Shown here: one piece after another, positions 10,814 through 64,000 of the stretch
How the letters are laid out: each line of letters opens with the position of its first letter
How positions within the stretch are numbered: the first letter of the stretch is position 1
Origin: Oceanococcus sp. HetDA_MAG_MS8
GTDB lineage: Bacteria; Pseudomonadota; Gammaproteobacteria; Nevskiales; Oceanococcaceae
DNA length: 64,000 nt
Assembly: GCA_019192445.1 (NCBI GenBank)
Contig: JAHCMK010000006.1
Location: 91,246-155,245 of the forward strand
Direction: 5' to 3'
The notes under the pieces: generated by a model
What the model saw: only the letters and a program-made list of their open reading frames with translations
What the model was told of the DNA's origin: nothing
Database searches by the model: none
Made by a program: the position numbers and the translations under genes

Positions 10814-10872
10814 ACAAACATGCAACCATCCCTGTGCGCCCAACTTGCTGCGCTGACGGCATGCGAGAAGCC

Positions 10873-38161: not shown

Positions 38162-39058
38162 TCAGTTGTATCCGTATCTCCTAAGTAGCGGTCTGCAGGT
38201 TGTCGCCAGCACCTGATTGGGCAAAGACGGCGTTCGTTGCGGCCACGGATCACTCACCTTAATTTCCGTTGGCCCGGTCTTGAAGGCGTCTGGGTTGCCC
38301 ACTACTCCATGATAATTTTGGATATCCACAGTGCGGCTATCTTCTGCAAGAGGAGACGCATAACTGACACCCAGCCAGTCACATATACCTTCCAGACTAA
38401 CGCCCGGGTTGTGTAGAAAGTCCTCAAACCGCATGAGCCGATAATGTAGCGCGCTGTGACCCAGCACCCGCTCCGCCAACACATTCGAGATGGCCCACTC
38501 CAACGCAATGCCCATCCACCCGCGCTGTTTTAGCCACTGCTTGTCGCTACGCCATGACATAGCGACTCCTCTGACATCACGGACCAAATGTAAAACCCAC
38601 AGCTCGACATTTGGCAACATTGACAGCGCCGTACCATACGACGCCACTCTGGACGTCTCTACGATGATCTTGCCGCCAGTCTGCTCAGCAAGTCGGAGAT
38701 ACAGCTCGTCGAGTCGTCCGAGGTATTCATCGAAATCTGGCCTCGCGCGTGTGCGTCCGGAGTGGAACATCAACTCCGGACGTTGGGAGAATCGAAACTT
38801 CTGGCGCCACTCATGCATGGCCTCCGGCTTCCATCCATCAATCAAACAGCCATTGGGGTAAAAAACCCTCCCCCAGAACTCGCACTCCTGAAAACTATGT
38901 CGACACGCACAATGCCCACTTCGCAGGAAGTTCCTAGCCCAGGTGTCATGGAGCTCCCCAACGGGGAAAAAGTTCTTCATCTGACCTAGCACTCGGCCGA
39001 TCAGGGTTCCACCACTACGGCCGGCTCCAGCAAGGTATAGAACCCGAGCTTTTTCCAT
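38162..39058 (-). CDS. sulfotransferase (Sulfotransfer_3-like)
   Basis: 298 aa. 5'-PSB LYLAGAGRSGGTLIGRVL and 3'-PB LHLVRDVRGVAMSW. Confidence 0.7.
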   Translation of the reverse strand: MEKARVLYLAGAGRSGGTLIGRVLGQMKNFFPVGELHDTWARNFLRSGHCACRHSFQECEFWGRVFYPNGCLIDGWKPEAMHEWRQKFRFSQRPELMFHSGRTRARPDFDEYLGRLDELYLRLAEQTGGKIIVETSRVASYGTALSMLPNVELWVLHLVRDVRGVAMSWRSDKQWLKQRGWMGIALEWAISNVLAERVLGHSALHYRLMRFEDFLHNPGVSLEGICDWLGVSYASPLAEDSRTVDIQNYHGVVGNPDAFKTGPTEIKVSDPWPQRTPSLPNQVLATTCRPLLRRYGYN

Positions 39059-39060
39059 TG

Positions 39061-40350
39061 TTAACTCACTTCACTCCAAAGGCGCCCCTCTTCCGCAGAA
39101 CGCTGCAACACTAGCCTTATCGCCCCAAGTAGCGTCAGGCCAAACAATACACCTACGGTTCTACTGAACAAGCCTGAGTGCGCCCAAAACACGGACCAGT
39201 AGGCGACGTTGGCAGCTATCAAACCCATATAGAAAGTATCTGGTGCAGACATTTTTCGCCATGCAGAAATGACGATCAGATACATAAATGCCATTTGGAG
39301 GGCAAAACTGAAGCACATCACTAAACCACCGGCTTCTAAAAGCTCTAACAAGCGATGATGGGCTTGCCCTATGGTGTGGTATCCGTTGCCCAGTACAGGC
39401 CTTTCCCAAATATCCTCCCACGACTCGGCCTGACGAACTGCCCTTCGATAATCGGAAACTACAGATGAGGCTGCGCCGGAAAGACGGCTGTATGCAGACT
39501 GTGAATCTGGGGCGGGGCCTCCCCGAATGAGCACAGGAGCCAACGCTACGCAAGCGCTTACGAGGATTAGCTTATAGACATGGCTCCAGCGGAAATGACG
39601 GCTCCATAATGAGAAGCACACCACAAAAACTAGGCCGACCACTGGCGCCAAGAGGCTACTGCGCGACCCTGAAAGGTTTGCCGCTGAAAAATTCACGTAT
39701 AGGACCAACAGCCACACCAAGCTACCCATCCAGCTTCTACTTCGAATGAAGAGTACCGATGTTGCCGCCAAAGCCATTGACACATTGAAGCCCAAGCTAG
39801 TCGAGTGCAGTGCCATCCCGGCGAATCTACGGCCTTCATCTTTCGCGTAAGCATCCAGAAGATCTGGCCATAAACCGTTGGCATCCATTACTGCAACAAG
39901 AGCACTCAAGGTGCTTCCAAGGATCCAGGCCGTCACTAACTGCGGTACCACTCGCGGACCACTTGAATACCATTGCACGATCACGAGCGGCACCACGATG
40001 TGGATATAGCTGTACACAATGTACTGAGTGACGTTTTGGCGGTAAGTCGATGAGTTGAGCTCCAATTGCCACAATGCCGTGACCAAACCCAGTATGAGCG
40101 CGACTACCCAAGGCAACGGTAGCCACATCCGACTTGTACTCGCATCTTGCCCGAGAAATTTGACCGCAATCGCTAAACCGATACACAAGTCTGAAATACT
40201 CAGCGCCCCACTGACGCGTAATGACTCGCAAGGAGCGAAAAACACTCCCAGAAAGAGCAACCAAGTTGCTGCCGCGGAAAAGTCAACATACTGCTCCGCG
40301 GACAGTTGTTGCGTTATGCCGGAATAACTCGTGGAGCCTGGATTAACCAC
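39061..40350 (-). CDS. Wzy_C (O-antigen polymerase/ligase) family membrane protein, second copy
   Basis: 429 aa, about 10 TM segments. NLSGSRSSLLAPVV and a periplasmic loop ending ERPVLGNGYHTIGQAHHRLLELLEAGG. Confidence 0.7.
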   Translation of the reverse strand: MVNPGSTSYSGITQQLSAEQYVDFSAAATWLLFLGVFFAPCESLRVSGALSISDLCIGLAIAVKFLGQDASTSRMWLPLPWVVALILGLVTALWQLELNSSTYRQNVTQYIVYSYIHIVVPLVIVQWYSSGPRVVPQLVTAWILGSTLSALVAVMDANGLWPDLLDAYAKDEGRRFAGMALHSTSLGFNVSMALAATSVLFIRSRSWMGSLVWLLVLYVNFSAANLSGSRSSLLAPVVGLVFVVCFSLWSRHFRWSHVYKLILVSACVALAPVLIRGGPAPDSQSAYSRLSGAASSVVSDYRRAVRQAESWEDIWERPVLGNGYHTIGQAHHRLLELLEAGGLVMCFSFALQMAFMYLIVISAWRKMSAPDTFYMGLIAANVAYWSVFWAHSGLFSRTVGVLFGLTLLGAIRLVLQRSAEEGRLWSEVS

Positions 40351-50256: not shown

Positions 50257-51405
50257 TTATTCCTTTCGCCTATCACTGTCGTCAGTCGCACGCTTTGAGA
50301 CAGACGTCGGAAACAACCTCTTTAGTCGCATGGCTGGACCTTCGATGAGCACGCCCGATAAATGAGCTGCGATCAGAATAAGGGCCAGCACAATCGCAAA
50401 GCTTGGCCATCCCTTTTGCTCACCAATGAGTTGATTTACACGTGGCTCAACAAATGTAAGAAATGGCATATGAAATAGGTAGATCGCATAGCTTAAGCTA
50501 CCAAGATACACGGGAACCTTTGACCGCAACCAGCCCAGCCACCACCTGGGTGGGCTAGTCACAATGAGTGCGATTAGACCCATGAATAACACAGCCGCCT
50601 GGGTCCATAGCAACGGCCTATGGAGAAGCTCTAAATCCGAAAGCCTTCCTGAATATCCAGCAATTAAATATGGAAGCAAGGAACCCAGGGCGGATAACAT
50701 AGAAATCCACCCGAGGCACGCTACCTTCATGAGGTTCCTTGTTGATCCAGTTGAACCGGCGGCGTAGTGAACAGCAACTGCCAACCCAACACCTAGTGCC
50801 AAACAGTCTATCTGACTCAGCAATAGCACTGGCGCCAACACCTGTGTCTTCAGATACAACCCGACGACTAGAAGACCGACCAAGGCCACTGATATACCGA
50901 TTAGGCCAAAGCGGGGGACAATCAGCAAGAGCAACAGCGGAAGGCATAGATAGAACTGCTCTTCAATTGCCAGAGTCCATATTGGCAGAAGGCCAGGAAG
51001 GAATTCGAGAAAGGAAAAGGGGTGATCCGACAGATTGAAATACAACGGTGTGAACTGAAGGTACACCATCGAAAGCTTCCATTCCGTGAAGCGAACTGTC
51101 GCGAAAAATTCATCACCATAACGAGACAAACTGTAGACGAGGTATACGACCAGCACAAAGTAGTATGCCGGCCAAACACGCAGAGCTCTTCTTATATAGA
51201 AGTTTCTCAGTGAAAATCTGCCGGCAACCAAGTCAATCAGGATAATACGCCCAATTAGATAGCCTGATAGCACAAAAAACATGGGCACCCAGCACCACGC
51301 CCAGAAGATATAGGTTGGATCCCAATGGTAGAAAACAACCATTAAAGCCCCAACACCACGGAGCCCGTCTAGCTCCGATATATTTTGAATTCTTTGCTGC
51401 GCCAT
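50257..51405 (-). CDS. acyltransferase family 3 membrane protein, second copy
   Basis: 382 aa, polytopic. ELDGLRGVGALMVVFYH signature. LGSLSYAIYLFHMP late motif. Confidence 0.8.
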   Translation of the reverse strand: MAQQRIQNISELDGLRGVGALMVVFYHWDPTYIFWAWCWVPMFFVLSGYLIGRIILIDLVAGRFSLRNFYIRRALRVWPAYYFVLVVYLVYSLSRYGDEFFATVRFTEWKLSMVYLQFTPLYFNLSDHPFSFLEFLPGLLPIWTLAIEEQFYLCLPLLLLLIVPRFGLIGISVALVGLLVVGLYLKTQVLAPVLLLSQIDCLALGVGLAVAVHYAAGSTGSTRNLMKVACLGWISMLSALGSLLPYLIAGYSGRLSDLELLHRPLLWTQAAVLFMGLIALIVTSPPRWWLGWLRSKVPVYLGSLSYAIYLFHMPFLTFVEPRVNQLIGEQKGWPSFAIVLALILIAAHLSGVLIEGPAMRLKRLFPTSVSKRATDDSDRRKE

Positions 51406-51586: not shown

Positions 51587-53332
51587 TCATTGGCTGCGGG
51601 AAGCCTTGATGCGGCGCGCTGTTCTCAGAGCGCGCGCGAGTCTCCCATACCGCCACCCAATGTGCGATCGCTGAATCGCCAGGGTGTCATGGACATCCTC
51701 AATCAACTCGTAATCCAGGCTATCTAATAGTTCGTTACATAGATTCTTGTCAGCGTCTGCGAAATGCTTATGCTCGAACAGGACAACGGCCGGGCGAAAT
51801 TCCAACCCTTGAATATCTTTGAGTATTTCAAAGTCATGCCCCTCCGCATCAATATGCAATAAATCCAGGTTGTCTAAGTCATGTTTCTTACATAACTCTT
51901 TGAGGGTAATACACCTCACGCTCTCTTCCACAATGCGGTCGGCAATATCAGGGATGTACTCCCTATGCTTCATGAGATGCGCCAGGTCGAATGAGCCTAT
52001 CTGGTCATACCAGGGTGGCAGATACGGATCGGAGCTATGGCGCAAGTAGTAAAACGTGGCTTGCTTTTCAGTGCGCGTTACCGCGGCTCGCTCAAGCTCG
52101 AGTCGTTTGTTGTTCCCGTAGCGCTGCTGTAGGCGCTCAAAGACATATGGGACGGGCTCTACCAGAATGCCGGACCACTCCCGGTTCGAGACATAGCTCT
52201 GCAATGGGTCGTCACAAACAGCATCATTGGATCCAACCTGAAGGAACTTAATGTTACTGCGAGTGTACGCAAAGGCTTCGAGGACATGGCGAAAAGGGCT
52301 TCGCCTCGGAGGCGCGTTTCGCAGGGTCCAGTAAACGTCACGCAACCACGCACCTAACCAGTTCTCTGGTGTACTGGACCAACGCAGAAGGTGAGTTTTG
52401 ATGCGTCGCCTGATTGGTGGCCCCGCCATAAAACGCTGCCAACGCCACTCCACACCGGCCGGCACCATGCCAATAAGGCCGTTCCGTACGGTGCGGCCCA
52501 CGATCGGGCGCGTCTCCCACGGTGTCTGTGCGAGCACATCGAAAAATTCGCGCCGATAGGGATTACGACAGCGTTGATGCCAAGCCTTAAAAGGGCCGAT
52601 GAAGTGCACGATTCGTGGCGATTGACGCGCCTGATTTATGTGTTTCACCGCATAGGGCAACGCCGAGTATGGGGCCGTGAACAGAACTGTCATCGCATTC
52701 CACTTCGGCTCCAACTGCAGCCAGCGACCTCTAAAAACTGCATTCAGTGGATCTTGATCAGCCCAAGGCATGGGTGCACGCCGCTCCTTGATAAAGTCGA
52801 TAAGGGCGTCAACACAGCCATCTTTTCGCATACGCTCAAGGTCCATGAGCATAACGCCACTATTAAAATACGCCTCAGGTGTTGATACTCCGAGTTGTTT
52901 GACGCGGGAAAACTCAGAAGGCAGCAGAGGCTGACTTACGGCTGCGAGCAAGTGCTCGCCTAAGTCCACTTGCCACAAGGCAGCCAGGTCCCCCCTGACG
53001 AGGGTATCAGCATCAACGTACAGAATTCTGCGTTGATTCGTGAGCAGTGTTGGAAGCAGGACTCGGTACCATGCCGACAAACCGAACCGTTGAGTTCTCG
53101 GGAATATTGTGCACATCTCAGGGTGGACCCTTGCAGGGCACCATGAAGCGCCGTGGCCTTGAACCACCCGCTCCAATGTCGCTAAATCTTCAGGCTGGCT
53201 GGCGTCGTCATACAGAAAGTGAATGCTGACCTGATGAGTCTTATTGTGGCTGAGCAAAGAGCTAAGCATTACGCCACAATCGACGATCAACCGGCTGTCG
53301 GCTGAGCAAGCGATGTGCAAGTGTTCGGTCAT
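51587..53332 (-). CDS. bifunctional GT8 glycosyltransferase / FkbM-family methyltransferase fusion
   Basis: 581 aa. The N-terminal half is GT8 (HIACSADSRLIVDCGVMLSSLL, ILYVDADTLV DxD, YFNSGVMLMDL, IVHFIGPFKAWH). The C-terminal half is FkbM-like (FLQVGSNDAVCDDPL, VEPVPYVFERL, LLHIDAEGHDFEIL). Confidence 0.8.
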   Translation of the reverse strand: MTEHLHIACSADSRLIVDCGVMLSSLLSHNKTHQVSIHFLYDDASQPEDLATLERVVQGHGASWCPARVHPEMCTIFPRTQRFGLSAWYRVLLPTLLTNQRRILYVDADTLVRGDLAALWQVDLGEHLLAAVSQPLLPSEFSRVKQLGVSTPEAYFNSGVMLMDLERMRKDGCVDALIDFIKERRAPMPWADQDPLNAVFRGRWLQLEPKWNAMTVLFTAPYSALPYAVKHINQARQSPRIVHFIGPFKAWHQRCRNPYRREFFDVLAQTPWETRPIVGRTVRNGLIGMVPAGVEWRWQRFMAGPPIRRRIKTHLLRWSSTPENWLGAWLRDVYWTLRNAPPRRSPFRHVLEAFAYTRSNIKFLQVGSNDAVCDDPLQSYVSNREWSGILVEPVPYVFERLQQRYGNNKRLELERAAVTRTEKQATFYYLRHSSDPYLPPWYDQIGSFDLAHLMKHREYIPDIADRIVEESVRCITLKELCKKHDLDNLDLLHIDAEGHDFEILKDIQGLEFRPAVVLFEHKHFADADKNLCNELLDSLDYELIEDVHDTLAIQRSHIGWRYGRLARALRTARRIKASRSQ

Positions 53333-54315
53333 CCAGGCCCACCTTTGGGTTTACGCCACCACTTCAATGACGCTTTCAATTGTCGCAGGCGCCCCCACCA
53401 CAACTCTAGGAAATAGGCCCAAACAGCGGGTATCCTGTGTAATACCCAGTTGGGGAAGCTCTCTCCAATGACCGCACAATCAGGCCAGTCAGTCCGCCGG
53501 CGATAGCGAAAATATTCTTTCTTATATGGAACGCGGCACCGGTAATGCCAGGGTTTAAAAGGCCCGCTAAAATGTACGATCGCCGGTTGGGTCCGCGCCT
53601 CATAGATTTCAGAGGTAGAGTATGGCAAGTAGCGGCGTGGAAGTTGGAAGTAGGCGGTTTGGGCATTCCAGCGCGGCTCTAAGTCGACTCTACTGTCCGC
53701 ATAGACGATGTTCAGCGGATCCTGGTCAACCCAGGGAAAGCGCCCTCCTTCGCGCCGCACAAGTTCGAGTAACCGGCGTGCCCGGCCGGTTTCTCGCATG
53801 GCCTTCAAGTCCATCAGTAACACGCCGCTATTAAAGTAACGATCAGGCTCATTTAAGCCTAACCCATCGCGAATCCTAGGCACCATGTGCGAATACAAAG
53901 GATTTGTCACCGCAGCAAGGCAATGACCGTTGAGAGGACGTTCCCATAGGGACCAAAGGCTCTTCATCACCACGATATCTGAGTCTAGGTAAAGGACTCG
54001 CTCTAACGGCGCCAGTAAATCTGGTAGAAGAAGCCTGAAACTTGCACTCAGACCGTATCGCGGTGAGTCCTGTAGATGAGCGATCAAGTGATGCGGAACA
54101 GCCAACGGCCGCCACTCTCCCCCAGCCCGGGCCACAGAACTAGCGAGCCCTGCCATTACGGGTGCAGGCAACTGCTTGTCGTGCAAAAAGTGTATGACAA
54201 CACGGTTAGGGTCATGCTGGCTCATCAGAGAAACCAGCATGGTTGCGCAATCCGCCGCAAAGTCTGCATCAGCAGCACAAGCTACGTGCAGTTCATTGGG
54301 AATCGCGCCGCTCAT
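53329..54315 (-). CDS. GT8 glycosyltransferase
   Basis: 328 aa. LHVACAADADFAADCATMLVSLM, VLYLDSDIVV, YFNSGVLLMDL and IVHFSGPFKPWH. Confidence 0.85.
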   Translation of the reverse strand: MSGAIPNELHVACAADADFAADCATMLVSLMSQHDPNRVVIHFLHDKQLPAPVMAGLASSVARAGGEWRPLAVPHHLIAHLQDSPRYGLSASFRLLLPDLLAPLERVLYLDSDIVVMKSLWSLWERPLNGHCLAAVTNPLYSHMVPRIRDGLGLNEPDRYFNSGVLLMDLKAMRETGRARRLLELVRREGGRFPWVDQDPLNIVYADSRVDLEPRWNAQTAYFQLPRRYLPYSTSEIYEARTQPAIVHFSGPFKPWHYRCRVPYKKEYFRYRRRTDWPDCAVIGESFPNWVLHRIPAVWAYFLELWWGRLRQLKASLKWWRKPKGGPG

Positions 54316-55214
54316 CCACCCAGATCCAGTATTTTTTCAGGGAGTAGCCTGCGCAAGCGTGGCCGTAGTTGGTCTCGCCAGTACACTAGCTTGCGATGCA
54401 GGTAGGGGGGGTCTATCAGATCAAGTAACCCATGCTTTTTCTGCGTCGCGTACAGATGGTTAGAGTCAGAGCGACTCTTTGGCTCCTCAATGTTCAGAAA
54501 CGCACTCAAAAAGCCTTTCGACTCCCCTAGGTCTGAGGTGCAAACCACTATCCTCCTGGATTCAGGAATTGCTTCCAGGACTAGGTTCAGGTGTGCGGCC
54601 CAAAAACGTAGATATCCATCGAGTGGGAAAAGGCCACGATTCTCAAGTGGTTGTTCGTCACCGGCGCATGGGCGGCTGAAGCCGGAAAAATAATAGTGAT
54701 AAACCGACGCCCAGAGAGGCGCTTGCGACTGAATCCACTCACGGGCATTCAATTGGTCATCAAGCATCGACCCAAGCCACGCTCGTGGAGACCGGACCGT
54801 AATGATGAACTTGGCGTGAGGAAATAGACTCACCAGAGTGGGGGTAAACGCGGCCAATAAGTGGTTGGACTCGAGCTCCCAACTGTCCTGCTTATCTCGC
54901 CAGTAAAGCCAGCTCCGGTAATCCTGCTTCAACTCCGGAAACCTCCGGCTTTCTTGGATCGCTCTCAGTAGTGGCTTACTAGTTGGCTCGTGCTGAACCT
55001 TCAGGCATGACTCAAACATACCGGCCACTGAGTGCGTACCGGTTTTTGGGGCGCCAACACAATAAGCATGCACGCGACGCTTGCCTCGCTGACGCTCAGC
55101 CAAGAGAAGGCCAGCCCGGTCTAGGTAACGGTAGGGGTGGGCGCTGGTCACAATACCCAGCCCCTTCTTGCCATCCTCTTGTACACAGGGAACTGCCAGG
55201 AAGGAGGGAGACAT
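54312..55214 (-). CDS. probable sulfotransferase
   Basis: 5'-PSB-like YCVGAPKTGTHSVAGMF and 3'-PB-like FIITVRSPRAWLGSMLD. The ATG at 55214 overlaps the upstream GT8 by 67 nt. The alternative GTG at 55151 gives a GTGA stop/start overlap. Confidence 0.55.
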   Translation of the reverse strand: MSPSFLAVPCVQEDGKKGLGIVTSAHPYRYLDRAGLLLAERQRGKRRVHAYCVGAPKTGTHSVAGMFESCLKVQHEPTSKPLLRAIQESRRFPELKQDYRSWLYWRDKQDSWELESNHLLAAFTPTLVSLFPHAKFIITVRSPRAWLGSMLDDQLNAREWIQSQAPLWASVYHYYFSGFSRPCAGDEQPLENRGLFPLDGYLRFWAAHLNLVLEAIPESRRIVVCTSDLGESKGFLSAFLNIEEPKSRSDSNHLYATQKKHGLLDLIDPPYLHRKLVYWRDQLRPRLRRLLPEKILDLGG

Positions 55215-56086
55215 CGTACCGCTCTCACTAGGCCAGTATTACCAATCCAAGGGGTACGACACCAAGGGGTTGATGACCATGATTCTCTAAATTCTGAGGT
55301 GTAAGGGTGCTGACACATCACATGCCAGGGCTTGGCGTGACCCGGCCCCTCAAAATGAACGATGCCAGGAGCGTCAACAGCCTCCCGCAAAGCACTTTCT
55401 CCAAGAACCTCTCGCGCGCGCTGCGGCCAAAAGAAAAACGAATTCTGGCAATTCCAGCGCGGGTGCAAAGCCAACCTTCGGCCTCCAAGCACTTTGTTGA
55501 GAGCATCTTGATCCGGCCACGCGAGCTCGGCCGCCCTCGCACGACCAAATGCTGCTAAATCTGCGACGACACCATCGGCACGCATCAGCTCAAGATTGAG
55601 CAACAGGACACCGCTGTTAAAGTACCTTTGCCCAGGCATTAGGCCCAGCTTTACTGACCAAGATGCCATTGATTTAGGCAGAACATTATCAACTGCTGCG
55701 AGATAATAATCTTCCAGCGACATCTGCCACACCGGGGTAAGGTCCGAGGTAACGAGTGCATCACAGTCTAGGTAGAGCACCTTCTCGATGCCAGACAATA
55801 GTTCTGGGAGATATATTCGGTACCACATTAACGCAGGAATGAATCGTAAACGCGGCAGGCCTTTCAAGCGATCGGATGAAGCGACATAGGTATGCAGGCT
55901 ACCGCCGCTGAACTCAATCATTTCGGCCAGTCTAGAAACATCCTCTGGGCTAACGTCGGGGGTGTGTAAAAGGTGTACGCGCACTCTGTGAGATGGAGAG
56001 TTACTGAGAACAGAGTGAATCATCGCTGCGCAGGGAGGCAGGTAATTGGCGTCAGTAGCACATGCTAAATCCATGCAACCATCCAC
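55148..56086 (-). CDS. GT8 glycosyltransferase
   Basis: 312 aa. MDLACATDANYLPPCAAMIHSVL, VLYLDCDALV, YFNSGVLLLNL and IVHFEGPGHAKPWH. Confidence 0.85.
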   Translation of the reverse strand: MDGCMDLACATDANYLPPCAAMIHSVLSNSPSHRVRVHLLHTPDVSPEDVSRLAEMIEFSGGSLHTYVASSDRLKGLPRLRFIPALMWYRIYLPELLSGIEKVLYLDCDALVTSDLTPVWQMSLEDYYLAAVDNVLPKSMASWSVKLGLMPGQRYFNSGVLLLNLELMRADGVVADLAAFGRARAAELAWPDQDALNKVLGGRRLALHPRWNCQNSFFFWPQRAREVLGESALREAVDAPGIVHFEGPGHAKPWHVMCQHPYTSEFRESWSSTPWCRTPWIGNTGLVRAVRCLPPSWQFPVYKRMARRGWVL

Positions 56087-56284: not shown

Positions 56285-57109
56285 TTATGCAAAGGACTCA
56301 AGCAAGCGCTGGCGCCGCGCCTTAAGGCGACCCCATTTTTTCCATAAACGTTCAGATAATAGCTGCGACTGCACACCCCACGTATCAAGCCCCTCCTCAT
56401 TCAAGTCGTAGCCAGCAGACTGTAGCAGCAACATACATTGTTTGCGATCGGTGCTTGATAAATGGTGGTGCTCATAGATTACCAAGCGAGGCTTCAGGGT
56501 AGAAAAGTCGATTTGTTTTATGATCTCAAAGTCATAACCTTCGGTGTCAATGTGCAGCACATCAACAGTCTTAATGTCATGCTTCGAACATAGAGACTCA
56601 AAGGTCAAGCAGGGGACCTCACTACAGACAATTCGACTCTCAATGTCCGGTATGAATTTGGCATGCCGAAGTAAAATCTCTCGAGAAAACGACCCCAAGC
56701 CATCGTACCAAGAGGGCAGCTCTTCATCTGGGCTGGCCTGAGGTAGGTGGTAAAATGGCATAACGCCTTCTTCCTGAGAAATAGCGACGTTTTCTAGCGC
56801 GAGTCGCTCACAGGTGTTATACCTGTTAAATAATCGCTCAAAAACGTAAGGGACTGGCTCCACCATTACCCCGCTCCATGCTGATTTCTGAATAGCATCA
56901 TGGAGAGGGTCTTGCTGGAGGCCGTCGTTTGAACCAATTTGAATGAATGTTGCTTGCGGGTAGGCTCTTGCAAATGCGAGCATGAAATCAGGTCCCACCA
57001 GCCTGCGCAGCCTACGCCTCTGCCTCCATATGCGCCGTGCATGCTGGAGTATTCCTTCACCATTTGAAACTCTCGAGAAATACAACCAGAAGCGATGAAG
57101 AAAAGTCAT
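56285..57109 (-). CDS. FkbM-family methyltransferase (stand-alone paralogue of the 51587-53332 C-terminal domain)
   Basis: 274 aa. FIQIGSNDGLQQDPL, VEPVPYVFERL (identical to the fusion protein) and VLHIDTEGYDFEII. Confidence 0.8.
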   Translation of the reverse strand: MTFLHRFWLYFSRVSNGEGILQHARRIWRQRRRLRRLVGPDFMLAFARAYPQATFIQIGSNDGLQQDPLHDAIQKSAWSGVMVEPVPYVFERLFNRYNTCERLALENVAISQEEGVMPFYHLPQASPDEELPSWYDGLGSFSREILLRHAKFIPDIESRIVCSEVPCLTFESLCSKHDIKTVDVLHIDTEGYDFEIIKQIDFSTLKPRLVIYEHHHLSSTDRKQCMLLLQSAGYDLNEEGLDTWGVQSQLLSERLWKKWGRLKARRQRLLESFA

Positions 57110-57112
57110 TAC

Positions 57113-57979
57113 TTATCCCCGAAAGCCTAAAAGCTGACTCAGTTGCTGACGGAGTGGTCTTTTCTCACGAACTCTAAGGTTGTACTCGTGCCGGTGGTGA
57201 TAGCGGAAAATGTCAGGGTACTGAGATTTCAGCCCTTCGTATTCACGGCCGTCAAAGTACTCCACAAGGTATGAGCGCCGCTGCCTTACGGAGGTGTTTT
57301 CAAAGCTACAGTGCAGTAAGTCGCGATGAATCAACAGAGCATCCCCCCTCTGCATAGCAACCGGCTTACACTCAGCGACCTTGGGGTCAACTTCGTAAAA
57401 TTGATTGAGCTGATTATCAACTCGGGTTGTCCCGTTTGATTTGCGTACGATACCTGGACTTGAATATCCCGGCTGGTGGCTTCCGGGAACGACCGTGAGG
57501 CACCCATTCTGTGCATCCACGTCGTCTAAGGGCATCCATACTGTGAAAACCGGCACCCCCAGGAAAAAGTCACTATCCCTATGCCAGTAGGTAACGCCTC
57601 CCGTGCGCGCTGGTTTGTGATAAAGCTGGTCGTCTAGTAGCCGCACGTCAGGCCCGAGAACGGCCTTAGCTGTGGCAACGATTCGAGGGTCGTGAACGAC
57701 ATCTAGAAAGGCCCTGTGATATCGGAAGGCATGCTCAATATGCAATGACGCCTTGCCGTTCACGTCGGCCAGGTTACCGTCTTCCCAAGTCAAAATGTTC
57801 TTTATAACCGGATACTTCCTCGTGTCCGTCTGCCCCTTATGACGGATAGCCTCCTCACTCAAGGCCTCCCAGGCCTTTATAAGCAGTTCTACTCGTCGTT
57901 GATCAAGTACTCCCGGAACGACAAGGAAACCATTCTCAGAGAACTGCTCCACCCCTGGGAAGTTGCCGAATGTATTCAT
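57113..57979 (-). CDS. PhyH-family Fe(II)/2-oxoglutarate-dependent dioxygenase
   Basis: 288 aa. GFLVVPGVLD start. H-x-D facial triad in WHRDSDF. Distal His in LIHRDLLHCSFEN, then RRS (2OG-binding Arg). Confidence 0.75.
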   Translation of the reverse strand: MNTFGNFPGVEQFSENGFLVVPGVLDQRRVELLIKAWEALSEEAIRHKGQTDTRKYPVIKNILTWEDGNLADVNGKASLHIEHAFRYHRAFLDVVHDPRIVATAKAVLGPDVRLLDDQLYHKPARTGGVTYWHRDSDFFLGVPVFTVWMPLDDVDAQNGCLTVVPGSHQPGYSSPGIVRKSNGTTRVDNQLNQFYEVDPKVAECKPVAMQRGDALLIHRDLLHCSFENTSVRQRRSYLVEYFDGREYEGLKSQYPDIFRYHHRHEYNLRVREKRPLRQQLSQLLGFRG

Positions 57980-57982
57980 ATG

Positions 57983-58732
57983 TTAGTTCTCTGGCTTGAT
58001 CAACAATCGTCCACACTCGTCGATACGGTGCAGGTAGGAGCCGGGTTTCTCCTTGGTTAAGTATTCGTCTACTGCCAGCCGGACTCCGGGAAAGCAACCA
58101 TAATCATCCAACAACAGTACGCCTCCAGGACTTAAGCGAGGATACAAGTGAACCATTTCATGCCTCGTTGACTCGTACCAGTCAGTATCCAGTCGGCACA
58201 GTGCCAGTTGATTCGGGGCGTTCTGCGGTAGGGTCTCTTCCACCATACCTTGAACAAATCTCAACCTATCTTCTGGGTACCCCGTGCTTTTAAGGAGTTG
58301 GACAACCTCAGCGAACGGAAGATAATCGAATGCTCCACACTCCAAAGCAGCCTCGTAACCTTGTGCAGGCGATGGAGCCTGGCCAGTAAAGTCTTTCTCA
58401 CCTGGAGGCGGCATGTGGGTGAATGTGTCGCATAAGACCAGCTCTCGGTCGCGAACACCGAGACTAAGCAAAGTCTCTGCCACAACCAGCATGCTGCCCC
58501 CTCGCCACACTCCGCATTCTAGGATTGCGCCGGGGACATCTTTGGCCACCAAATAGCGAACCGAGTCAACGAGTGCAATGATGCGCTCATTGCTTGTCAG
58601 CGTGTAGGGGCGAACTCGACCGATCAACCGACGGGTAAATTCGTCACAGTCCGATGGAAGACGTTGCTTCCGAGGATAGGCTGAAATGTCATATCCCAGA
58701 CGGCGTATCCCCCTCTTGATTAACCCTCTCAT
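57983..58732 (-). CDS. TylF/MycF-family sugar O-methyltransferase
   Basis: 249 aa. ECGVWRGGS, CDTF, metal-binding RLDTDWYEST and LLLDDYG. Confidence 0.8.
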   Translation of the reverse strand: MRGLIKRGIRRLGYDISAYPRKQRLPSDCDEFTRRLIGRVRPYTLTSNERIIALVDSVRYLVAKDVPGAILECGVWRGGSMLVVAETLLSLGVRDRELVLCDTFTHMPPPGEKDFTGQAPSPAQGYEAALECGAFDYLPFAEVVQLLKSTGYPEDRLRFVQGMVEETLPQNAPNQLALCRLDTDWYESTRHEMVHLYPRLSPGGVLLLDDYGCFPGVRLAVDEYLTKEKPGSYLHRIDECGRLLIKPEN

Positions 58733-58815: not shown

Positions 58816-59571
58816 TCAAGCTTTAATGACCAAGCGAGCAGCATAATCGATACGGGTCAGGAGCACAGGTTCGGCATACTGAGAAAAGTACTCATCAACC
58901 GCTTGCTTGCTGCCATGCCAATGACCGTAGTCATCTAAAATCAATACTCCACCATGCGCCAGCCTCGGGTACAAACACAACAGCTCGTGCTTCGTAGATT
59001 CGTACCAGTCGGTGTCCAATCTGAGTAGGGCCAGCTGCTCCGGTGCCTGCGTAGGAAGGGTTTCTTCAACTGGCCCTCGAACGAAATGGATACGGCTTGC
59101 GGGGTAGCCGGTCTGCATGAGCAGGTCGCGAACATTGTTCTCGTTAAACCCAGACTCTTCGAAGAACTCCTTCCATGGCCTCTCACCCCTGCCAATAGAG
59201 TTTTTCCAACTGTCTAAAGCTGGCCGCTCATAGGGTGAAGTATCGTTATTTGAGGGCATCGTCATGCCCTCGAAGGTGTCGTATAGAAAGATGTCCTTAT
59301 TATCAACGCCCATCTCTTGTAGAGTCAGAATCATCGCAAGGATGGACCCTCCTCTCCACACCCCGCATTCCGCGAAGGCCCCGTCTAGGTCACGCTGAAC
59401 ACAGTAGCGCACCGCATCAAGTAGTGCAGCGATCCGCGGCAAGCTAGTCATCGTATATGGTCGTATCGCTGAAATGATGCGATGGTCTGTTTCGGTCAGA
59501 GATTGACGCAGACGTGCGTGCGGATGTTCTTGAGGACTGCGACCCAGTGCCCGTCGTAACCGCCGAATCAC
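58816..59571 (-). CDS. TylF/MycF-family sugar O-methyltransferase, tandem paralogue
   Basis: 251 aa. ECGVWRGGS, YDTFEGM, RLDTDWYEST and LILDDYG. Confidence 0.8.
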   Translation of the reverse strand: MIRRLRRALGRSPQEHPHARLRQSLTETDHRIISAIRPYTMTSLPRIAALLDAVRYCVQRDLDGAFAECGVWRGGSILAMILTLQEMGVDNKDIFLYDTFEGMTMPSNNDTSPYERPALDSWKNSIGRGERPWKEFFEESGFNENNVRDLLMQTGYPASRIHFVRGPVEETLPTQAPEQLALLRLDTDWYESTKHELLCLYPRLAHGGVLILDDYGHWHGSKQAVDEYFSQYAEPVLLTRIDYAARLVIKA

Positions 59572-60728
59572 GCAGCACCCTCAATACGGGCCAGGGTCTT
59601 GAGCCAAACCCGCATCATTTGAGCAGTTTCCCTAAGAAACTCCTGACCTCCCTGATCCCAAATGAAACCATGCATTCGTGATGCTTGAAGCTCCAGCTCA
59701 TCCGCCAACACGGCATAAGCTTCGGTGTAGGTACTGGCTTGAAGTTTTAAACCCTGAAGCCAAGGAAGCAGATCCTCCACAATCACTTTACCCGCAAGCT
59801 CGTGATACAAGTCCTGAAAAAGGTTATGCGGCGAGCGTCGATGCTCAGCAATAGGGGACCCAAAGCATATGGCATCTCCAAGATGCTTGACACACTTTTG
59901 TAGAAAATAACCGGACAGGATGTCGCCATATCGATCAATACGCATCCCCTGGATGGGGAAACCCATCCGCACATAGTAATAGGCCGGAATCGCATCTCTA
60001 ATCAATGCGGTGTTCTGGGTGTTAATGGGGCTCCATGTTGGAGTATCTAGCAAAACAGCAGTCGAGTTCGCCGAAATTACTCGCGGGCCCTGAACCAATC
60101 TCGTAGCGGCGTCAACGTCGGGATCATCGGTCCACAGTCCTGCATTAACGGCGACGCGTCTATCGGTTGAGCCTAAAGGCTCAAGCGTGGCCCGTTCTGA
60201 AGCGCCACGCGCTGCGTAAGGGAACCCGCGCGCATAAAAAGACGCACAGTTTTCTGCATGAAGGTTTTCACAGACGTTGTACCACGGCGCCTGAGATGCA
60301 AGCATAGCTGAGCCTGGCAGAGTCGTTGTCGCAGACCCCACGATGCCATGAGCATCTATGAAGGATTCCCCTTGCAGGCAATAGTTGTCATCATCGATGG
60401 ATATGAGCGCTCTTGCCCCATGCTCCCAAGCTCGTAGAAACCCAATATTGCGACGGTTATCAGAGTTCCAGGGGATAAAGTCGGCCGGCAAACCCAGTTT
60501 TTTTAAGTAGTCAGCCTGCTCATCCAGGCTCGGGCAGTCAATATGAAAACCCATTTGCTGCGCTTGGGCTGCGGCCGCATAGACTTCCTTGGGAGTTTTT
60601 TTGTCACAAATTATTCTTAACGTGACTTTGTCACACGCATCATACTTCTCAAAATTCTCCAGGTAGCCTAATAGCCACTCAGGAGAAAATATCGTCGTTA
60701 CAACGATGTCAAATTCTGTCGGCTTCAT
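59568..60728 (-). CDS. RGP/GT75-like protein (homologue of plant reversibly glycosylated polypeptide / UDP-L-arabinopyranose mutase)
   Basis: 386 aa. Collinear with plant RGP1 by eye (window motif vs RGP1 motif):
- DIVVTTI vs DIVIPTI
- RIICDKKTP vs LIIVQDGDP
- ISIDDDNYC vs FTIDDDCFV
- ARGFPYAAR vs VRGYPFSLR
- VNAGLWTDDPDVDAATRL vs VSHGLWLNIPDYDAPTQL
- RIDRYGDILSGYF..KCVKHLG vs IGRYDDMWAGWC.KVICDHLG. Confidence 0.65.
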   Translation of the reverse strand: MKPTEFDIVVTTIFSPEWLLGYLENFEKYDACDKVTLRIICDKKTPKEVYAAAAQAQQMGFHIDCPSLDEQADYLKKLGLPADFIPWNSDNRRNIGFLRAWEHGARALISIDDDNYCLQGESFIDAHGIVGSATTTLPGSAMLASQAPWYNVCENLHAENCASFYARGFPYAARGASERATLEPLGSTDRRVAVNAGLWTDDPDVDAATRLVQGPRVISANSTAVLLDTPTWSPINTQNTALIRDAIPAYYYVRMGFPIQGMRIDRYGDILSGYFLQKCVKHLGDAICFGSPIAEHRRSPHNLFQDLYHELAGKVIVEDLLPWLQGLKLQASTYTEAYAVLADELELQASRMHGFIWDQGGQEFLRETAQMMRVWLKTLARIEGAA

Positions 60729-62002
60729 ATCTCGGGTCGCTCTCCGCTATGGCTGGTCGACTGCGGCCACCAGATGGAAACATAAAGGCCGCTAAAATGA
60801 AGAAAAAGACGCAGCCAATCTGTTTGCCCATCTAAAACCTCATGTACTGCAGATCGGTTCCCCAGCAAAGCGGGATGCCCATAGTCCTCGCAAACAAGGA
60901 CACTGCCAGGACTCAGGTACTGTTGCGGTATAGCGCGCAACAGGTACTCGGTCGCACGAAAACTGTCACAATCAATAAATGCCATCGCCAACTTTTCAAT
61001 CGGCGCGCTGTCTAATGTCTGAGTAAAGTCACCTTGAATGAGGTGTACTTTCGGCATTTTCTCAAATTTCTTTTGAACCTGAGAAAAATCCACATGGTGC
61101 GTATTTCCCCAGAAGTAATCAACACCACGTTCTTGGGGAAAGCGATCAAAGGTATCGAACAGGAAGACGCGCTTATCAGACCCCAGCAACTCCAAAGTCC
61201 GCGCAATAAGCCAACCACTGTGACCCTGGTAAGAGCCGAACTCTGCGATGTCCCCAGGGATATTCCTCTCTACAACCAACTTGAGTAGTTGGTAGAGATC
61301 CAGAAAATCACGCAGGCCGCACTTCTGTTCAAACAGGCTCAATGACTCTGCATAAATCTCGTGTGGCGTCGGCTTATCCAATAACGCGGGCGAAACGAAA
61401 AAAGTTTCCCGGTATTCGTCATGCGCAGAGAAAAATGGCTGGGCAGCGTCCAAGCCGGCAACATACTCAAACGGAAGCTGAGAAAGAAATGGATGGCGCA
61501 TCACGGCCCGTGCCAACTGGGTTTGCCGCGATGCATCTTGAAACAAGCATAGGACAAGCCTGCACTTTTCCAAGTCATCATCCGTGTCCGTGGCAATGGC
61601 TGCAATATCAGTCTCGCGAACCCTAAGACCGTTTGCTCTCAGGCGAATCAAGACACCACGATGGAAACCATCCTTAGGCCCGCTACACAGCACCCAGGCA
61701 CCAGTATTAACTGCCTCTGGGGGAAGCCGTTGCAAAACCTGCTGCACCAGTGCAGTGGCTCCTTCTTCTTGTCCACGAGCGCCATGCCAGCGCACGCGCT
61801 GAGCAATCGACGAACGACCTAGATAGCCAGCAACGCGGCCACTAATTTTTCCAGAGCGCCAGCGCCATACCCAACGGCTCCACAACAGCGCTGCTGCCCT
61901 AAACACGAACGTTTTTCCCCAAGTTCCGCAGGCTCCGACCCGCCGCGTCCTCGTCTGGAAACAGACTTGAGTAATCGCCTGTGCGGACAATCTTGCCATC
62001 AT
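60725..62002 (-). CDS. methyltransferase (TylF/Methyltransf_24-like C-terminal domain) with an uncharacterised N-terminal region of about 190 aa
   Basis: The C-terminal half carries IAEFGSYQGHSGW, LFDTFDRFP, FIDCDSFRATEY and LVCEDYG. The ATG at 62002 overlaps the upstream ABC gene by 104 nt. The alternative GTG at 61906 overlaps the ABC stop codon by only 8 nt. The start is unresolved. Confidence 0.65.
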   Translation of the reverse strand: MMARLSAQAITQVCFQTRTRRVGACGTWGKTFVFRAAALLWSRWVWRWRSGKISGRVAGYLGRSSIAQRVRWHGARGQEEGATALVQQVLQRLPPEAVNTGAWVLCSGPKDGFHRGVLIRLRANGLRVRETDIAAIATDTDDDLEKCRLVLCLFQDASRQTQLARAVMRHPFLSQLPFEYVAGLDAAQPFFSAHDEYRETFFVSPALLDKPTPHEIYAESLSLFEQKCGLRDFLDLYQLLKLVVERNIPGDIAEFGSYQGHSGWLIARTLELLGSDKRVFLFDTFDRFPQERGVDYFWGNTHHVDFSQVQKKFEKMPKVHLIQGDFTQTLDSAPIEKLAMAFIDCDSFRATEYLLRAIPQQYLSPGSVLVCEDYGHPALLGNRSAVHEVLDGQTDWLRLFLHFSGLYVSIWWPQSTSHSGERPEI

Positions 62003-63707
62003 TAACGATGAAAATTTGATCGCAATCCATCACCGTCGCCATACGATGAGCGATGACAATGACCGTCTTGACGTGGGCCATTTCCATAATCGCTTGATGC
62101 ACCGCTCTTTCGGTGTCCTGATCTAGCGCGCTGGTTGCCTCATCCAGCACGAGCACGTCCGGGTCATGGTAGAGAGCACGGGCTATACCTAAACGCTGCC
62201 TCTGCCCCCCCGACAGGCGAACACCCCGCTCCCCCACAATAGTCGCATAACCATTCTCCATATGAGCACAAATGTGCTCGTGGATTTTTGCAGTTTTGGC
62301 GGCTCTATAGACCGCTTCAATGTTCACCTCCGACGGTGGTACGCCGAAAGCGATGTTAGCGATGACTGTGTCATCAAGCAGGTAAATATCTTGGGGAACG
62401 TAGCCCATATTCGCTTGCCAGGCGTGCCGGTTCTCTTCGGTTATCACCTGGTTATCGACGATCAGCCCCCCTTTCTGCGGTGTCAGTAACCCAAGGATGA
62501 CATCGACAAGCGTTGTCTTTCCCGCACCTGTCGGGCCAACAAAGGCGACAAAACTACGCTTTGCAATATCTACACTGACATCGCTTAGCGCCTTTTTCTC
62601 AGATCCGGGGTAGCTGTAACTCACATGGTCTAGACGCAGACCATGTTCCATGGGCATTCGAGGAGGGTTGGGAGCTCTCCCTCCCTCAGGCCATGTCTGC
62701 GTGAGCTCCAGCGAAATAGACTTCAGCACGGGCGCAGTGTATTTCAGCGTTGTCAAACCCCGATAGATCGACTGGAAAGCGGGCAACATACGGTAGCCGG
62801 CGAATGCAAACGCACTGGCCAATGGCAGGAGCGCAGACAAGTTACGGTCAGCAGCAACAAAGTAGAGCACAACACTTAATAGTGCGCCAAAAGCCAGGGT
62901 CTCAATAAAATAGCGCGGGATCATCCCCAGCAAATGATTCGAGATCACCGAGCGGGAAAACTCTAATGCATGAGGCTGAAATGCGTGCACGAATGCGTCC
63001 TCACGCCCTAGTACCTTGACTTCCTTCAGCCCTCCAAAAGCCTCGTTAACAGCCTTAAGCCGAGCCTTGTTGGCGTCCAGCCTGCGCTGACCCAGACGCT
63101 CCATCCGCCGGCGAAGAACAACATACATCCCACCATAAATGACTGCGAACACGGTGGCTACAAGCAAAACCGTTACCGGGGAAAGCCAACTCAAGAAAAG
63201 CAACATGAAGATGACCATCACGCCCGAGCACGACAACCCTAAAATGATGGCAATCACACCGTGCGTTACCTGTAAGGACTCATTGACAACTGTGGTTGCC
63301 AAATCCGCTGAGTTACTAGCGATGAAGTCAACATAGGGCCGGTGGATGTAATTATGCAGTAGCGTACCCGACAACCTTCTATGAAAGTCATAACAAAACT
63401 TCGTTATCCACCATTGACTCAACATAGCCAGGCTATTGGCCATGATCAGCATCACAAGGATCAGACCCCCAAAAATTAGAGTGAAAGTCTTATGCGAATC
63501 AATACCGGCCAGGTTTGCAAACGATGCAAGCCACCTATTCTCCCAAATCATTTCCGGGCGGGTCAGCATGGAGATGAAGGGAACCACTGAACCAATGCTC
63601 GCGACTTGCACAACGCCGAGTACAGCGGCAAACGGCAAGATCAAAGCAAACTGTTTACGCTCACTATGGGTAAGTAGCAAGCGCAAGTCGCGCACCATAG
63701 ACTTCAT
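61899..63707 (-). CDS. fused TMD-NBD ABC exporter (MsbA/PglK/NdvA-like half transporter)
   Basis: 602 aa. N-terminal 6-TM domain. Walker A GPTGAGKTT, signature LSGGQRQRLGIARAL, Walker B VLVLDEATSALD and H-loop IVIAHR. Confidence 0.9.
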   Translation of the reverse strand: MKSMVRDLRLLLTHSERKQFALILPFAAVLGVVQVASIGSVVPFISMLTRPEMIWENRWLASFANLAGIDSHKTFTLIFGGLILVMLIMANSLAMLSQWWITKFCYDFHRRLSGTLLHNYIHRPYVDFIASNSADLATTVVNESLQVTHGVIAIILGLSCSGVMVIFMLLFLSWLSPVTVLLVATVFAVIYGGMYVVLRRRMERLGQRRLDANKARLKAVNEAFGGLKEVKVLGREDAFVHAFQPHALEFSRSVISNHLLGMIPRYFIETLAFGALLSVVLYFVAADRNLSALLPLASAFAFAGYRMLPAFQSIYRGLTTLKYTAPVLKSISLELTQTWPEGGRAPNPPRMPMEHGLRLDHVSYSYPGSEKKALSDVSVDIAKRSFVAFVGPTGAGKTTLVDVILGLLTPQKGGLIVDNQVITEENRHAWQANMGYVPQDIYLLDDTVIANIAFGVPPSEVNIEAVYRAAKTAKIHEHICAHMENGYATIVGERGVRLSGGQRQRLGIARALYHDPDVLVLDEATSALDQDTERAVHQAIMEMAHVKTVIVIAHRMATVMDCDQIFIVNDGKIVRTGDYSSLFPDEDAAGRSLRNLGKNVRV

Positions 63708-63713
63708 GTCGTA

Positions 63714-64000
63714 TTACGCTTGAGGGCTCTTCTCAAGCACACCTCGAAAATACGCAACGGTATGCCGTAAACCCTGCTCTAGGGCGACATCGGGCATCCA
63801 ATGCAGATTATCTTTTGCGTAAGTGATATCCGGCTGCCGCTGCTTGGGATCATCTTGGGGAAGCGGCTCAAAGCTGAACCCTCCACTCATGCCGGTGAGC
63901 TGCTGCACCTTTTCCGCCAGCTCCAACATGGTGAATTCAGCCGGGTTGCCCAAGTTGACCGGCCCAGTGAGATCATCGGCGGACTCCATGAGCCGAATTA
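63714..64000 (-). CDS. UDP-glucuronate decarboxylase (UDP-xylose synthase), C-terminal part only; the gene continues beyond the window
   Basis: [20 protein letters not shown]...[18 protein letters not shown]...[12 protein letters not shown] is alignable by eye with the human UXS1 C-terminus ([17 protein letters not shown]...DDPQKRKPDI). The reading frame is open to position 64000. Confidence 0.8.

Follow-up and report, generated by a model that had tools for sequence, protein, structure and literature searches.

A gene in a 64,000-nucleotide stretch of DNA from Oceanococcus sp. HetDA_MAG_MS8 (contig JAHCMK010000006.1; hereafter the window) encodes a bacterial member of glycosyltransferase family 75 (GT75), the family of the reversibly glycosylated polypeptides (RGPs) and UDP-arabinopyranose mutases (UAMs) of plants. 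Oceanococcus is a gammaproteobacterial genus, and the protein is publicly annotated as 'hypothetical protein'. Judged from its sequence, predicted fold and active-site residues, it is probably a soluble, divalent-metal-dependent nucleoside diphosphate (NDP)-sugar pyranose/furanose mutase of the branch represented by the bacterial enzymes MtdL and Hyg20. With gmd and fcl in the operon of the GT75 gene as well, the evidence leans, modestly, towards a Mn2+-dependent GDP-L-fucopyranose/furanose mutase that feeds an exopolysaccharide locus in which genes for methyltransferases, GT8 enzymes and sulfotransferases abound.

Family, fold and active site

The open reading frame (ORF) occupies positions 59568-60728 on the minus strand, begins with ATG and encodes 386 amino acids, while the plus-strand translation of the same interval is full of stops. 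The original prediction had placed an RGP-like ORF at exactly these coordinates, and all six of its landmarks are present: DIVVTT (residues 7-12), DDD (112-114), RGFPY (167-171), GLWTDDPDVDAATRL (197-211), RYGDILSG (266-273) and HLG (282-284). The sole Pfam family matched is PF03214 (RGP), at 42.2 bits and E 7.9e-11 against a gathering score of 23.8 bits, with residues 4-343 aligned to profile positions 4-310 of 342. This match is well above chance, and all 120 listed homologues of the protein carry the PF03214 annotation. NCBIfam gave no match for the protein, nor for the three TylF-type methyltransferases encoded around it, and no stretch of the protein is hydrophobic enough to suggest a transmembrane helix (maximum Kyte-Doolittle 19-residue mean 0.92). 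Its AlphaFold2 (AF2) model has a predicted local distance difference test score of 89.7 and a predicted template modelling (TM) score of 0.91. In the model, and in the Foldseek comparisons made with it, a GT-A-like N-terminal Rossmann region is followed by the GT75-specific core and a C-terminal helical region. By sequence threshold, fold and catalytic motifs, the ORF belongs to GT75, as had been predicted.

The original prediction had likened the ORF to the plant proteins, but plant UDP-arabinopyranose mutases are not its nearest characterised relatives. When the single sequence was searched against the PDB with phmmer, MtdL was the best match of solved structure (E 1.4e-84, 287 bits), whereas rice UAM2 (8CID) reached only E 0.27. 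A profile built from the query and 17 close homologues (18 sequences, also used as the clade alignment below) matched MtdL with 385 bits and E 3e-114 over residues 7-374, and rice UAM2 with 28 bits and E 8e-6. Structural comparison told the same story: the AF2 model shares its fold with rice UAM2 (TM 0.62/0.69, E 2.5e-15), but lies far closer to MtdL 7XPS (TM 0.90/0.93, root-mean-square deviation 2.1 Å). Other GT-A folds reached a query-normalised TM score of at most about 0.4.

MtdL, which serves the antibiotic A201A, and Hyg20, which serves hygromycin A, are the only two characterised bacterial members of GT75 (PMC9937993). Both are Mn2+-dependent mutases, independent of flavin adenine dinucleotide (FAD), that interconvert GDP-L-Galp/Galf and GDP-L-Fucp/Fucf; each converts both GDP-L-Fuc and GDP-L-Gal in vitro, the substrate of Hyg20 being GDP-L-fucose and the physiological substrate of MtdL GDP-L-galactose (PMC9937993). 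Structures of bacterial GT75 mutases were solved in 2023 (PMC9937993; for MtdL, PDB 7XPR, 7XPS, 7XPT, 7XPU and 7YUA). Since MtdL and Hyg20 have already been characterised, bacterial GT75 mutases are not unprecedented, and the original statement that bacteria do not make furanoses with GT75 proteins survives only for surface polysaccharides, whose known mutases are flavoenzymes (PMC12369002).

The residues defined in MtdL by crystal structures and mutagenesis (PMC9937993) were mapped onto the query. The Mn2+ ligands D111 and H287 of MtdL correspond to D114 and H296; the diphosphate ligands Q229, R257, R289 and H292 to Q238, R266, R298 and H301; and the ribose contacts R90, D109 and D110 to R93, D112 and D113. 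The nucleophilic, autoglycosylated arginine R159 is matched by R167, the proposed general base D260 by D269, the other essential acidic residues D87 and D195 by D90 and D204, and N112 by N115, while the guanine contacts T13, I15, D40 and S86 become T11, I13, D42 and S89. The mapped positions that differ are N42 of MtdL, which is K44 in the query, and S228, which is T237. The Mn2+, diphosphate and sugar-pocket residues are invariant in the clade alignment, and R167 is conserved in 125 of 125 aligned family members.

Four of the positions separate GDP-using from UDP-using enzymes. In the UDP-using RGPs of plants, MtdL positions 13, 42, 86 and 87 are occupied by Pro, Asp, Asp and Ser, and in MtdL the mutation S86D abolishes GDP binding and D87S abolishes activity (PMC9937993). 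MtdL itself has T, N, S and D at these positions and the query has T11, K44, S89 and D90, a set that shares none of the plant residues. The query's set is, however, identical to that of P0275, a protein of Streptomyces leeuwenhoekii. The gene cluster of P0275 encodes a ketosynthase, an AMP-ligase, an acyl carrier protein, a short-chain dehydrogenase/reductase (SDR), a glycosyltransferase, an inositol dehydrogenase and an inositol-1-phosphate synthase, and continues with a major facilitator superfamily transporter, the RGP itself, a kinase, an acyltransferase, an NDP-sugar SDR and further genes. Because this gene order matches that of the hygromycin A cluster, we take P0275 to be the orthologue of Hyg20, and it served as a stand-in for the Hyg20 sequence in the comparisons made here. 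At 15 functional positions, it equals the query except for Ser in place of Thr at 237. Among 118 relatives of MtdL, the position of N42 is held by Lys in 90 and by Arg in 19, and Asn is confined to MtdL, its orthologue Ata16 and one further sequence. As the presumed Hyg20 orthologue also has Lys there, Lys44 should be compatible with the use of GDP-L-fucose.

Overall similarity and all the ligand-binding residues open to comparison put the ORF in the MtdL/Hyg20 branch, and the four nucleotide-separating residues are not those of a plant-type UDP-arabinopyranose mutase. That the protein is an NDP-pyranose/furanose mutase can be held with considerable confidence, and it is likely that the nucleotide of its substrate is GDP. 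Elsewhere in the family, 30 of 125 diverse representatives have Ile or Val at the position of D90 (the essential D87 of MtdL), and 34 of the 125 have Gln at that of H296 (the Mn2+-binding H287); judging from these replacements, such sub-families may use another substrate or may lack mutase activity.

Proposed substrate: GDP-L-fucose and its rivals

The head of the operon lies beyond the right edge of the window and was read from a public contig (L001) that is identical to the window and reaches 6 kb further. Here, the original prediction had suggested looking for a UDP-xylose 4-epimerase and a UDP-glucose dehydrogenase (UGD). What stands there instead is gmd (L001:4907-6025, window ~64704-65822; TIGR01472 563 bits, cut-off 415) and fcl (L001:3955-4893, window ~65836-66774; NF047922 the clear best match at 449 bits, below its cut-off of 500), both on the minus strand. 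No UGD gene, and no GalE-type gene or UDP-xylose 4-epimerase, was found in the window or the 6 kb beyond it. Among GDP-sugars, GDP-L-fucose alone has a dedicated pathway encoded in the operon. Upstream of fcl, two small genes with no annotation separate it from a resistance-nodulation-division efflux system that is transcribed divergently.

If the GT75 protein acts on GDP-L-fucose, a mechanism can be proposed from that of MtdL. GDP-beta-L-fucopyranose would be made by Gmd and Fcl, whose genes stand at the operon head, and would be bound with Mn2+ on D114 and H296 and with its diphosphate on Q238, R266, R298 and H301. R167, deprotonated by D269, would attack C1 and displace GDP, leaving a covalent arginine-sugar adduct. 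The ring would then open with transfer of a proton to O5, O4, placed by D90 and D269, would close the furanose, and renewed attack by GDP would release GDP-L-fucofuranose. The gene content of the locus suggests that a GT2 or GT8 enzyme would transfer the furanose and that the translationally coupled TylF-type methyltransferases would O-methylate it; more speculatively, the three free hydroxyls of a fucofuranoside would match the three TylF paralogues of the operon. A PglK-like ATP-binding cassette (ABC) exporter would flip the lipid-linked unit, and the Wzy_C, Wzc and Wza proteins would polymerise and export it. L-fucofuranose, probably O-methylated, would then be a building block of a sulfated exopolysaccharide of a marine gammaproteobacterium. 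To our knowledge, this form of the sugar is otherwise confined to a handful of natural products, hygromycin A among them.

The gene neighbourhoods of relatives were surveyed for the same supply genes. In tblastn searches with the operon proteins against 70 species-representative loci, gmd-like genes were found in nine, fcl in four and the UDP-glucuronate decarboxylase gene (UXS), which is also part of the operon considered here, in five. Within 10 kb of the GT75 gene, gmd, fcl and UXS occur together in the window and in two further gammaproteobacterial loci (L012 and L017), while gmd and fcl occur with no UXS in L079, which is a contig from a forest metagenome and belongs to the close clade, and in L018, of the Verrucomicrobia. 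UXS is present, with or without UGD and with neither gmd nor fcl, in L005/L077, L009, L075, L011/L076 and L080, and six Acidobacteriota loci have a short gmd only. In most loci, none of gmd, fcl, UXS, UGD and GalE lies within 10 kb. Likewise, nine relative maps annotated with Pfam split into those with gmd-fcl only, those with UXS with or without UGD only, and those with neither. Gene context was thus tried as a means of deciding between GDP-fucose and a UDP-pentose, and failed, the relatives' maps being split. Neither do the active sites help: the signature T-K-(S/T)-D-(T/S)-H hardly varies among the loci examined, whatever the accompanying genes, and therefore does not discriminate between sub-clades.

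Several observations weigh against GDP-L-fucose as the substrate. The identity of the query to MtdL is only ~40%, and the activity of its clade is a predicted one. Most related loci lack gmd and fcl within 10 kb, and the close clade links the GT75 gene to UXS at least as often as to these two. In L009 and L076 the gene immediately upstream of GT75 is UXS; in L007 it is a GalE-family 4-epimerase gene (TIGR01179, 420 bits), a gene that in the congener L017 follows UXS. The MtdL-like base contacts indicate compatibility with GDP, not necessarily exclusion of UDP. Finally, we know of no report of L-fucofuranose in a bacterial surface polysaccharide, and searches of open-access papers found no report of it in bacterial polysaccharides.

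These arrangements are also what speaks for a UDP-pentose mutase. UDP-xylose would be epimerised to UDP-L-arabinopyranose, which would be contracted to UDP-L-arabinofuranose, or UDP-xylopyranose or UDP-galactopyranose would be used directly. The original prediction had found UXS in the same transcriptional direction as the GT75 gene in a glycan locus, and rightly so: the part of UXS inside the window lies at 63714-64000 on the minus strand, where 63717-63998 encodes the C-terminal 94 residues (tblastn with the L001 protein, 100%), and the gene continues past the edge to give a protein of 316 amino acids in all that matches human UXS1 (4GLL) with E 1.3e-125. Further, the operons of relatives begin with UGD-UXS, in the absence of gmd and fcl (L075, L076 and L077), or with UXS-TylF-GT75 (L080). 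In L076, of the Spongiibacteraceae, a NusG-family gene, which is possibly an RfaH-type antiterminator, is followed by UGD, UXS and GT75 (7012-11158), and in L009, of the Nevskiales, the order is UGD, UXS, GT75 (7618-11119); these two show the tightest link of GT75 to a UDP-pentose branch that was seen. Because UGD-UXS or GalE so repeatedly adjoins GT75 in relatives, the UDP-pentose mutase is kept as a live rival, albeit an unlikely one. The branch from UDP-glucuronate to UDP-xylose suggested by the original prediction is present in the form of UXS, but neither the 4-epimerase for its continuation to UDP-arabinose nor a UGD gene was found in the window or the adjoining 6 kb. The four nucleotide-separating residues are those of the presumed Hyg20 orthologue and not of plants; D90, whose counterpart in MtdL does not tolerate the plant residue, is invariant in all related loci scored; and the similarity to plant UAM is marginal, at 18% identity. 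Moreover, UXS, UGD and GalE may simply supply xylose, glucuronic acid or galactose to the many glycosyltransferases, and L079 and L018 have gmd and fcl with no UXS.

The simplest reading of the split maps is that the glycan of the close clade holds residues derived from both fucose and xylose, with the supply genes variably kept in the operon. Family GT8 includes xylosyltransferases, and xylosyl transfer by the GT8 enzymes of the locus could account for the requirement for UDP-xylose.

A GT75 mutase acting on another L-galacto-like sugar, such as GDP-L-galactose, GDP-D-arabinopyranose or another GDP-6-deoxyhexose, is likewise improbable. The in vitro activity of both MtdL and Hyg20 on GDP-L-Gal as well as GDP-L-Fuc (PMC9937993) would permit it, as would the replacement of S228 of MtdL by Thr, and the six Acidobacteriota loci with a gmd-like gene of ~335 bits have no fcl within 10 kb. 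On the other side, neither the window nor L001 showed a GDP-mannose 3,5-epimerase or an alternative 4-reductase, and the GDP-L-fucose pathway is the operon's sole dedicated source of a GDP-sugar. The Acidobacteriota loci (L039, L047, L053, L067, L070 and L071) form a group of their own, with short Gmd-type dehydratases that score below the TIGR01472 cut-off; the full maps of L039 and L070 show WecA-like, asparagine synthase, GT4 and Wzm/Wzt-like ABC genes. Going by their gene content, they could use a different GDP-6-deoxyhexose.

A variant of the UDP-pentose idea supposes that GT75 was recruited to the UGD-UXS(-GalE) branch in the gammaproteobacterial clade of this gene and contracts a UDP-pentose (UDP-L-arabinopyranose, or even UDP-xylopyranose) with an MtdL-like pocket. 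We regard such a recruitment, which the adjacency of UGD-UXS or GalE to GT75 in relatives speaks for, as doubtful; were it true, bacteria would possess a plant-type, flavin-independent pentofuranose route for surface glycans.

The original prediction had also left room for a self-glycosylating or transfer enzyme in place of a mutase. As a full alternative, the protein could glycosylate itself on Arg, act as a primer-type glycosyltransferase or serve as a non-catalytic partner in the manner of the class-2 RGPs of plants. Rice UAM2 is reportedly without mutase activity, which was counted in favour of this alternative. GT75 members do autoglycosylate a conserved arginine, and AtRGP5 is a GT75 protein reported to lack mutase activity (PMC9937993). 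However, the inactive AtRGP5 has no equivalents of H287 and R257, whereas the query keeps H296, R266 and every other residue of the mutase chemistry, and throughout the wider family the catalytic residues vary little or not at all. The mutase half of the original alternative is accordingly retained, and the other half appears very improbable. An FAD flavoenzyme of the Glf/UGM type was rejected, Pfam having returned only PF03214, and Foldseek only GT75 proteins and GT-A glycosyltransferases.

The operon, the wider locus and the distribution of the family

We infer an operon around the GT75 gene from common strand, gene overlaps and short gaps. Promoter-like and terminator-like sites between 50 and 64 kb occur at chance level (9 against 11.6, and 17 against 14.6, in shuffled controls) and are therefore uninformative as to its limits. 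The upstream half of the same-strand run reads fcl, gmd, uxs, an ABC exporter gene, a TylF-type methyltransferase gene, GT75 and two further TylF-type genes; the downstream half reads PhyH dioxygenase, FkbM methyltransferase, GT8, sulfotransferase, GT8, a GT8-FkbM fusion and an acyltransferase.

Directly upstream of the GT75 gene, and overlapping its start by 4 nt (ATGA), a gene for a TylF-type O-methyltransferase occupies 60725..62002 on the minus strand (PF05711, E 6.4e-15, residues 234-376). The public gene call begins at 61906 (393 aa), and the protein has an N-terminal extension of ~200 residues with no Pfam match. Orthologues of at least 40% identity occur in 14 of the 70 related loci, and orthologues of 358-398 aa recur beside or near the GT75 gene in relatives. 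Before it stands a gene for an exporter with fused transmembrane and nucleotide-binding domains (61899..63707, minus strand; PF00664 and PF00005) of the PglK/MsbA/HepA-like kind. In NCBIfam it scores best against PglK (308.6 bits) and MsbA (271 bits), neither score reaching its cut-off, and by these matches it is a candidate flippase for a lipid-linked glycan.

On the other side, the GTG start of a second TylF-type O-methyltransferase gene (58816..59571, minus strand; PF05711, E 1.1e-39) overlaps the GT75 stop by 4 nt (GTGA), and the third follows at 57983..58732 (minus strand; PF05711, E 3.3e-43). All the remaining genes of the run are also on the minus strand. A PhyH-family Fe(II)/2-oxoglutarate dioxygenase (57113..57979; PF05721, E 9.1e-31) is encoded between methyltransferase genes. 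Its NCBIfam matches are only weak (39.6 bits for ectoine hydroxylase, where the cut-off is 336.5), it has no orthologue in the 70 related loci, and its target for hydroxylation or oxidation might be a sugar or an acyl substituent. Then come the genes for an FkbM-family methyltransferase (56285..57109; PF05050, E 2.6e-19), a retaining GT8 glycosyltransferase (55148..56086; PF01501, E 2.5e-41), a sulfotransferase (54312..55214; PF17784, E 2.5e-11) and another GT8 glycosyltransferase (53329..54315; PF01501, E 2.3e-36). A 581-aa fusion (51587..53332) joins a GT8 domain (PF01501, E 1.3e-44, residues 6-253) to an FkbM domain (PF05050, E 2.2e-16, residues 365-539), an architecture that suggests coupling of glycosyl transfer to O-methylation. 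An Acyltransferase_3-type O-acyltransferase gene (50257..51405; PF01757, E 1.6e-27) is the last of the run.

By gene content, this run makes up the distal end of a ~40-kb polysaccharide locus. The rest of the locus encodes a beta-barrel porin, Wza, Wzc (the Wza/Wzc system lying at 24-27 kb of the window), a Wzy_C-domain protein, an initiating transferase of the Bac_transf family, six GT2 and two GT4 glycosyltransferases, and further sulfotransferases and methyltransferases. There are at least four sulfotransferase-family genes (32267-33109, 37216-38142, 38162-39058 and 54312-55214), some of them with weak Pfam scores. A SulP sulfate permease gene (10873-12621) and a gene with a PAPS-reductase domain (16705-17430) lie 20-40 kb away in the same window. 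The presence of sulfotransferase, SulP and PAPS-reductase-domain genes in the window suggests that the exopolysaccharide of this marine gammaproteobacterium is sulfated. The ORFs at 39061-40350 (429 aa) and 34474-35331 (285 aa) have no Pfam match at E ≤ 0.001, and the former could encode a divergent Wzy/Wzx-like membrane protein.

The family is large. A homologue search yielded 1972 matches among 8000 word-sharing candidates scored, and an exhaustive search, counted in clusters at 50% identity, gave 2105 at E ≤1e-3, 876 at E ≤1e-10 and 222 at E ≤1e-30. In the species-representative genome scan, with groups assigned by record titles, the 70 loci fall to Acidobacteriota (24), Planctomycetota (17), Gammaproteobacteria (16), Actinomycetota-labelled records (5), Verrucomicrobia, Cyanobacteria and Omnitrophota (2 each), and Lentisphaerae and Chloroflexota (1 each). 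Homologues with the same active-site signature occupy polysaccharide loci across these phylum-level groups, at least nine in number. Given this number of homologue clusters and their spread over phyla, the GT75 gene is no oddity.

Unbiased clustering of neighbouring ORFs found the GT75 gene always within glycan loci. GT2 heads the list of neighbours (42 loci), followed by a GT2/GT7C type (22), an ABC ATPase (19), asparagine synthase (17), acyltransferase_3 (16), GT8 (13) and several GT4; these counts are lower bounds, because in some GC-rich loci the ORF caller lost the GT75 gene to antisense ORFs. In the close clade, the recurring core consists of a TylF-type methyltransferase, GT75, an FkbM methyltransferase and GT8, together with sulfotransferases and a Wzx or ABC exporter, the FkbM gene coming after GT75 in both L075 and L077. 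In an operon that is conserved in other respects, the export module seems to have been exchanged: a Wzx-type flippase (Polysacc_synt) is found in the gene run of L002 (11967-13448), L003 (13993-15489) and L079 (12964-14523), the fused PglK/MsbA-type exporter in this locus, L076 and L077, and Wzm/Wzt-type ABC-2 transporters in L075 and L004.

Searches of open-access papers returned nothing relevant on bacterial surface-glycan loci with GT75 or PF03214. The GT75 family, fold and mechanism have been described before, and no principle is changed; what is new, in that it was not described in the literature searched, is that such a gene stands in a Gram-negative surface-polysaccharide locus and that loci of this kind are spread so widely over phyla. 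Because both characterised bacterial members belong to antibiotic pathways, environmental glycans that contain furanoses may form an entire class that has gone unrecognised. The GT75 enzymes would also offer catalysts for the synthesis of NDP-furanoses.

Comparison with characterised mutases

MtdL of Marinactinospora thermotolerans (orthologue Ata16) is the closest of the known systems. It is of similar length (376 against 386 aa), has the same three-region GT75 fold and, over 343 residues, shares ~40% identity with the query, in which the Mn2+, diphosphate, ribose and sugar-binding residues and the catalytic Arg/Asp pair are identical. MtdL binds GDP with a Kd of ~0.2 µM. The differences are the replacement of N42, the guanine O6 contact, by Lys, that of S228 by Thr and, at the tetramer interface, that of E341 by Ser. 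The biological settings differ as well, MtdL belonging to a nucleoside antibiotic pathway of an actinomycete and the query to a Wza/Wzc-type exopolysaccharide locus of a marine gammaproteobacterium. Further, the physiological substrate of MtdL is GDP-L-galactose, whereas the neighbourhood of the query encodes only the GDP-L-fucose pathway.

Hyg20 of Streptomyces hygroscopicus, compared through P0275, agrees with the query at 14 of the 15 functional positions, including Lys at the position of MtdL N42, and GDP-L-fucose, its substrate, is also the one predicted for the query. An Epimerase/GDP_Man_Dehyd-type SDR gene is present in the P0275 cluster. The Ser of P0275 at query position 237 sets the two proteins apart, as does the setting, a secondary-metabolite cluster on the one hand and a surface-polysaccharide locus on the other.

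The plant RGP/UAM proteins (rice UAM1/3, AtRGP1-3; rice UAM2 in 8CID) share with the query PF03214, the general fold, the DxD motif, RG[FY]P with its glycosylated Arg, the R..D and His residues for metal and diphosphate, and a metal-dependent, FAD-independent chemistry. They are nevertheless remote at ~18% identity, have a UDP-specific base pocket (P, D, D), carry Ser in place of MtdL D87 and query D90, and act on D-galacto-like substrates (UDP-L-Arap, UDP-D-Galp) rather than L-galacto ones.

The flavin mutases resemble the query in its predicted function. Glf and HS41.17, the CDP-fucopyranose mutase of Campylobacter jejuni HS:41 and an FAD enzyme, catalyse the same net conversion of NDP-pyranose to NDP-furanose and supply furanosyl donors for Gram-negative surface polysaccharides (PMC12369002). 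Their fold is unrelated, and where they employ a reduced flavin as the nucleophile, the GT75 protein of Oceanococcus would employ an arginine with Mn2+.

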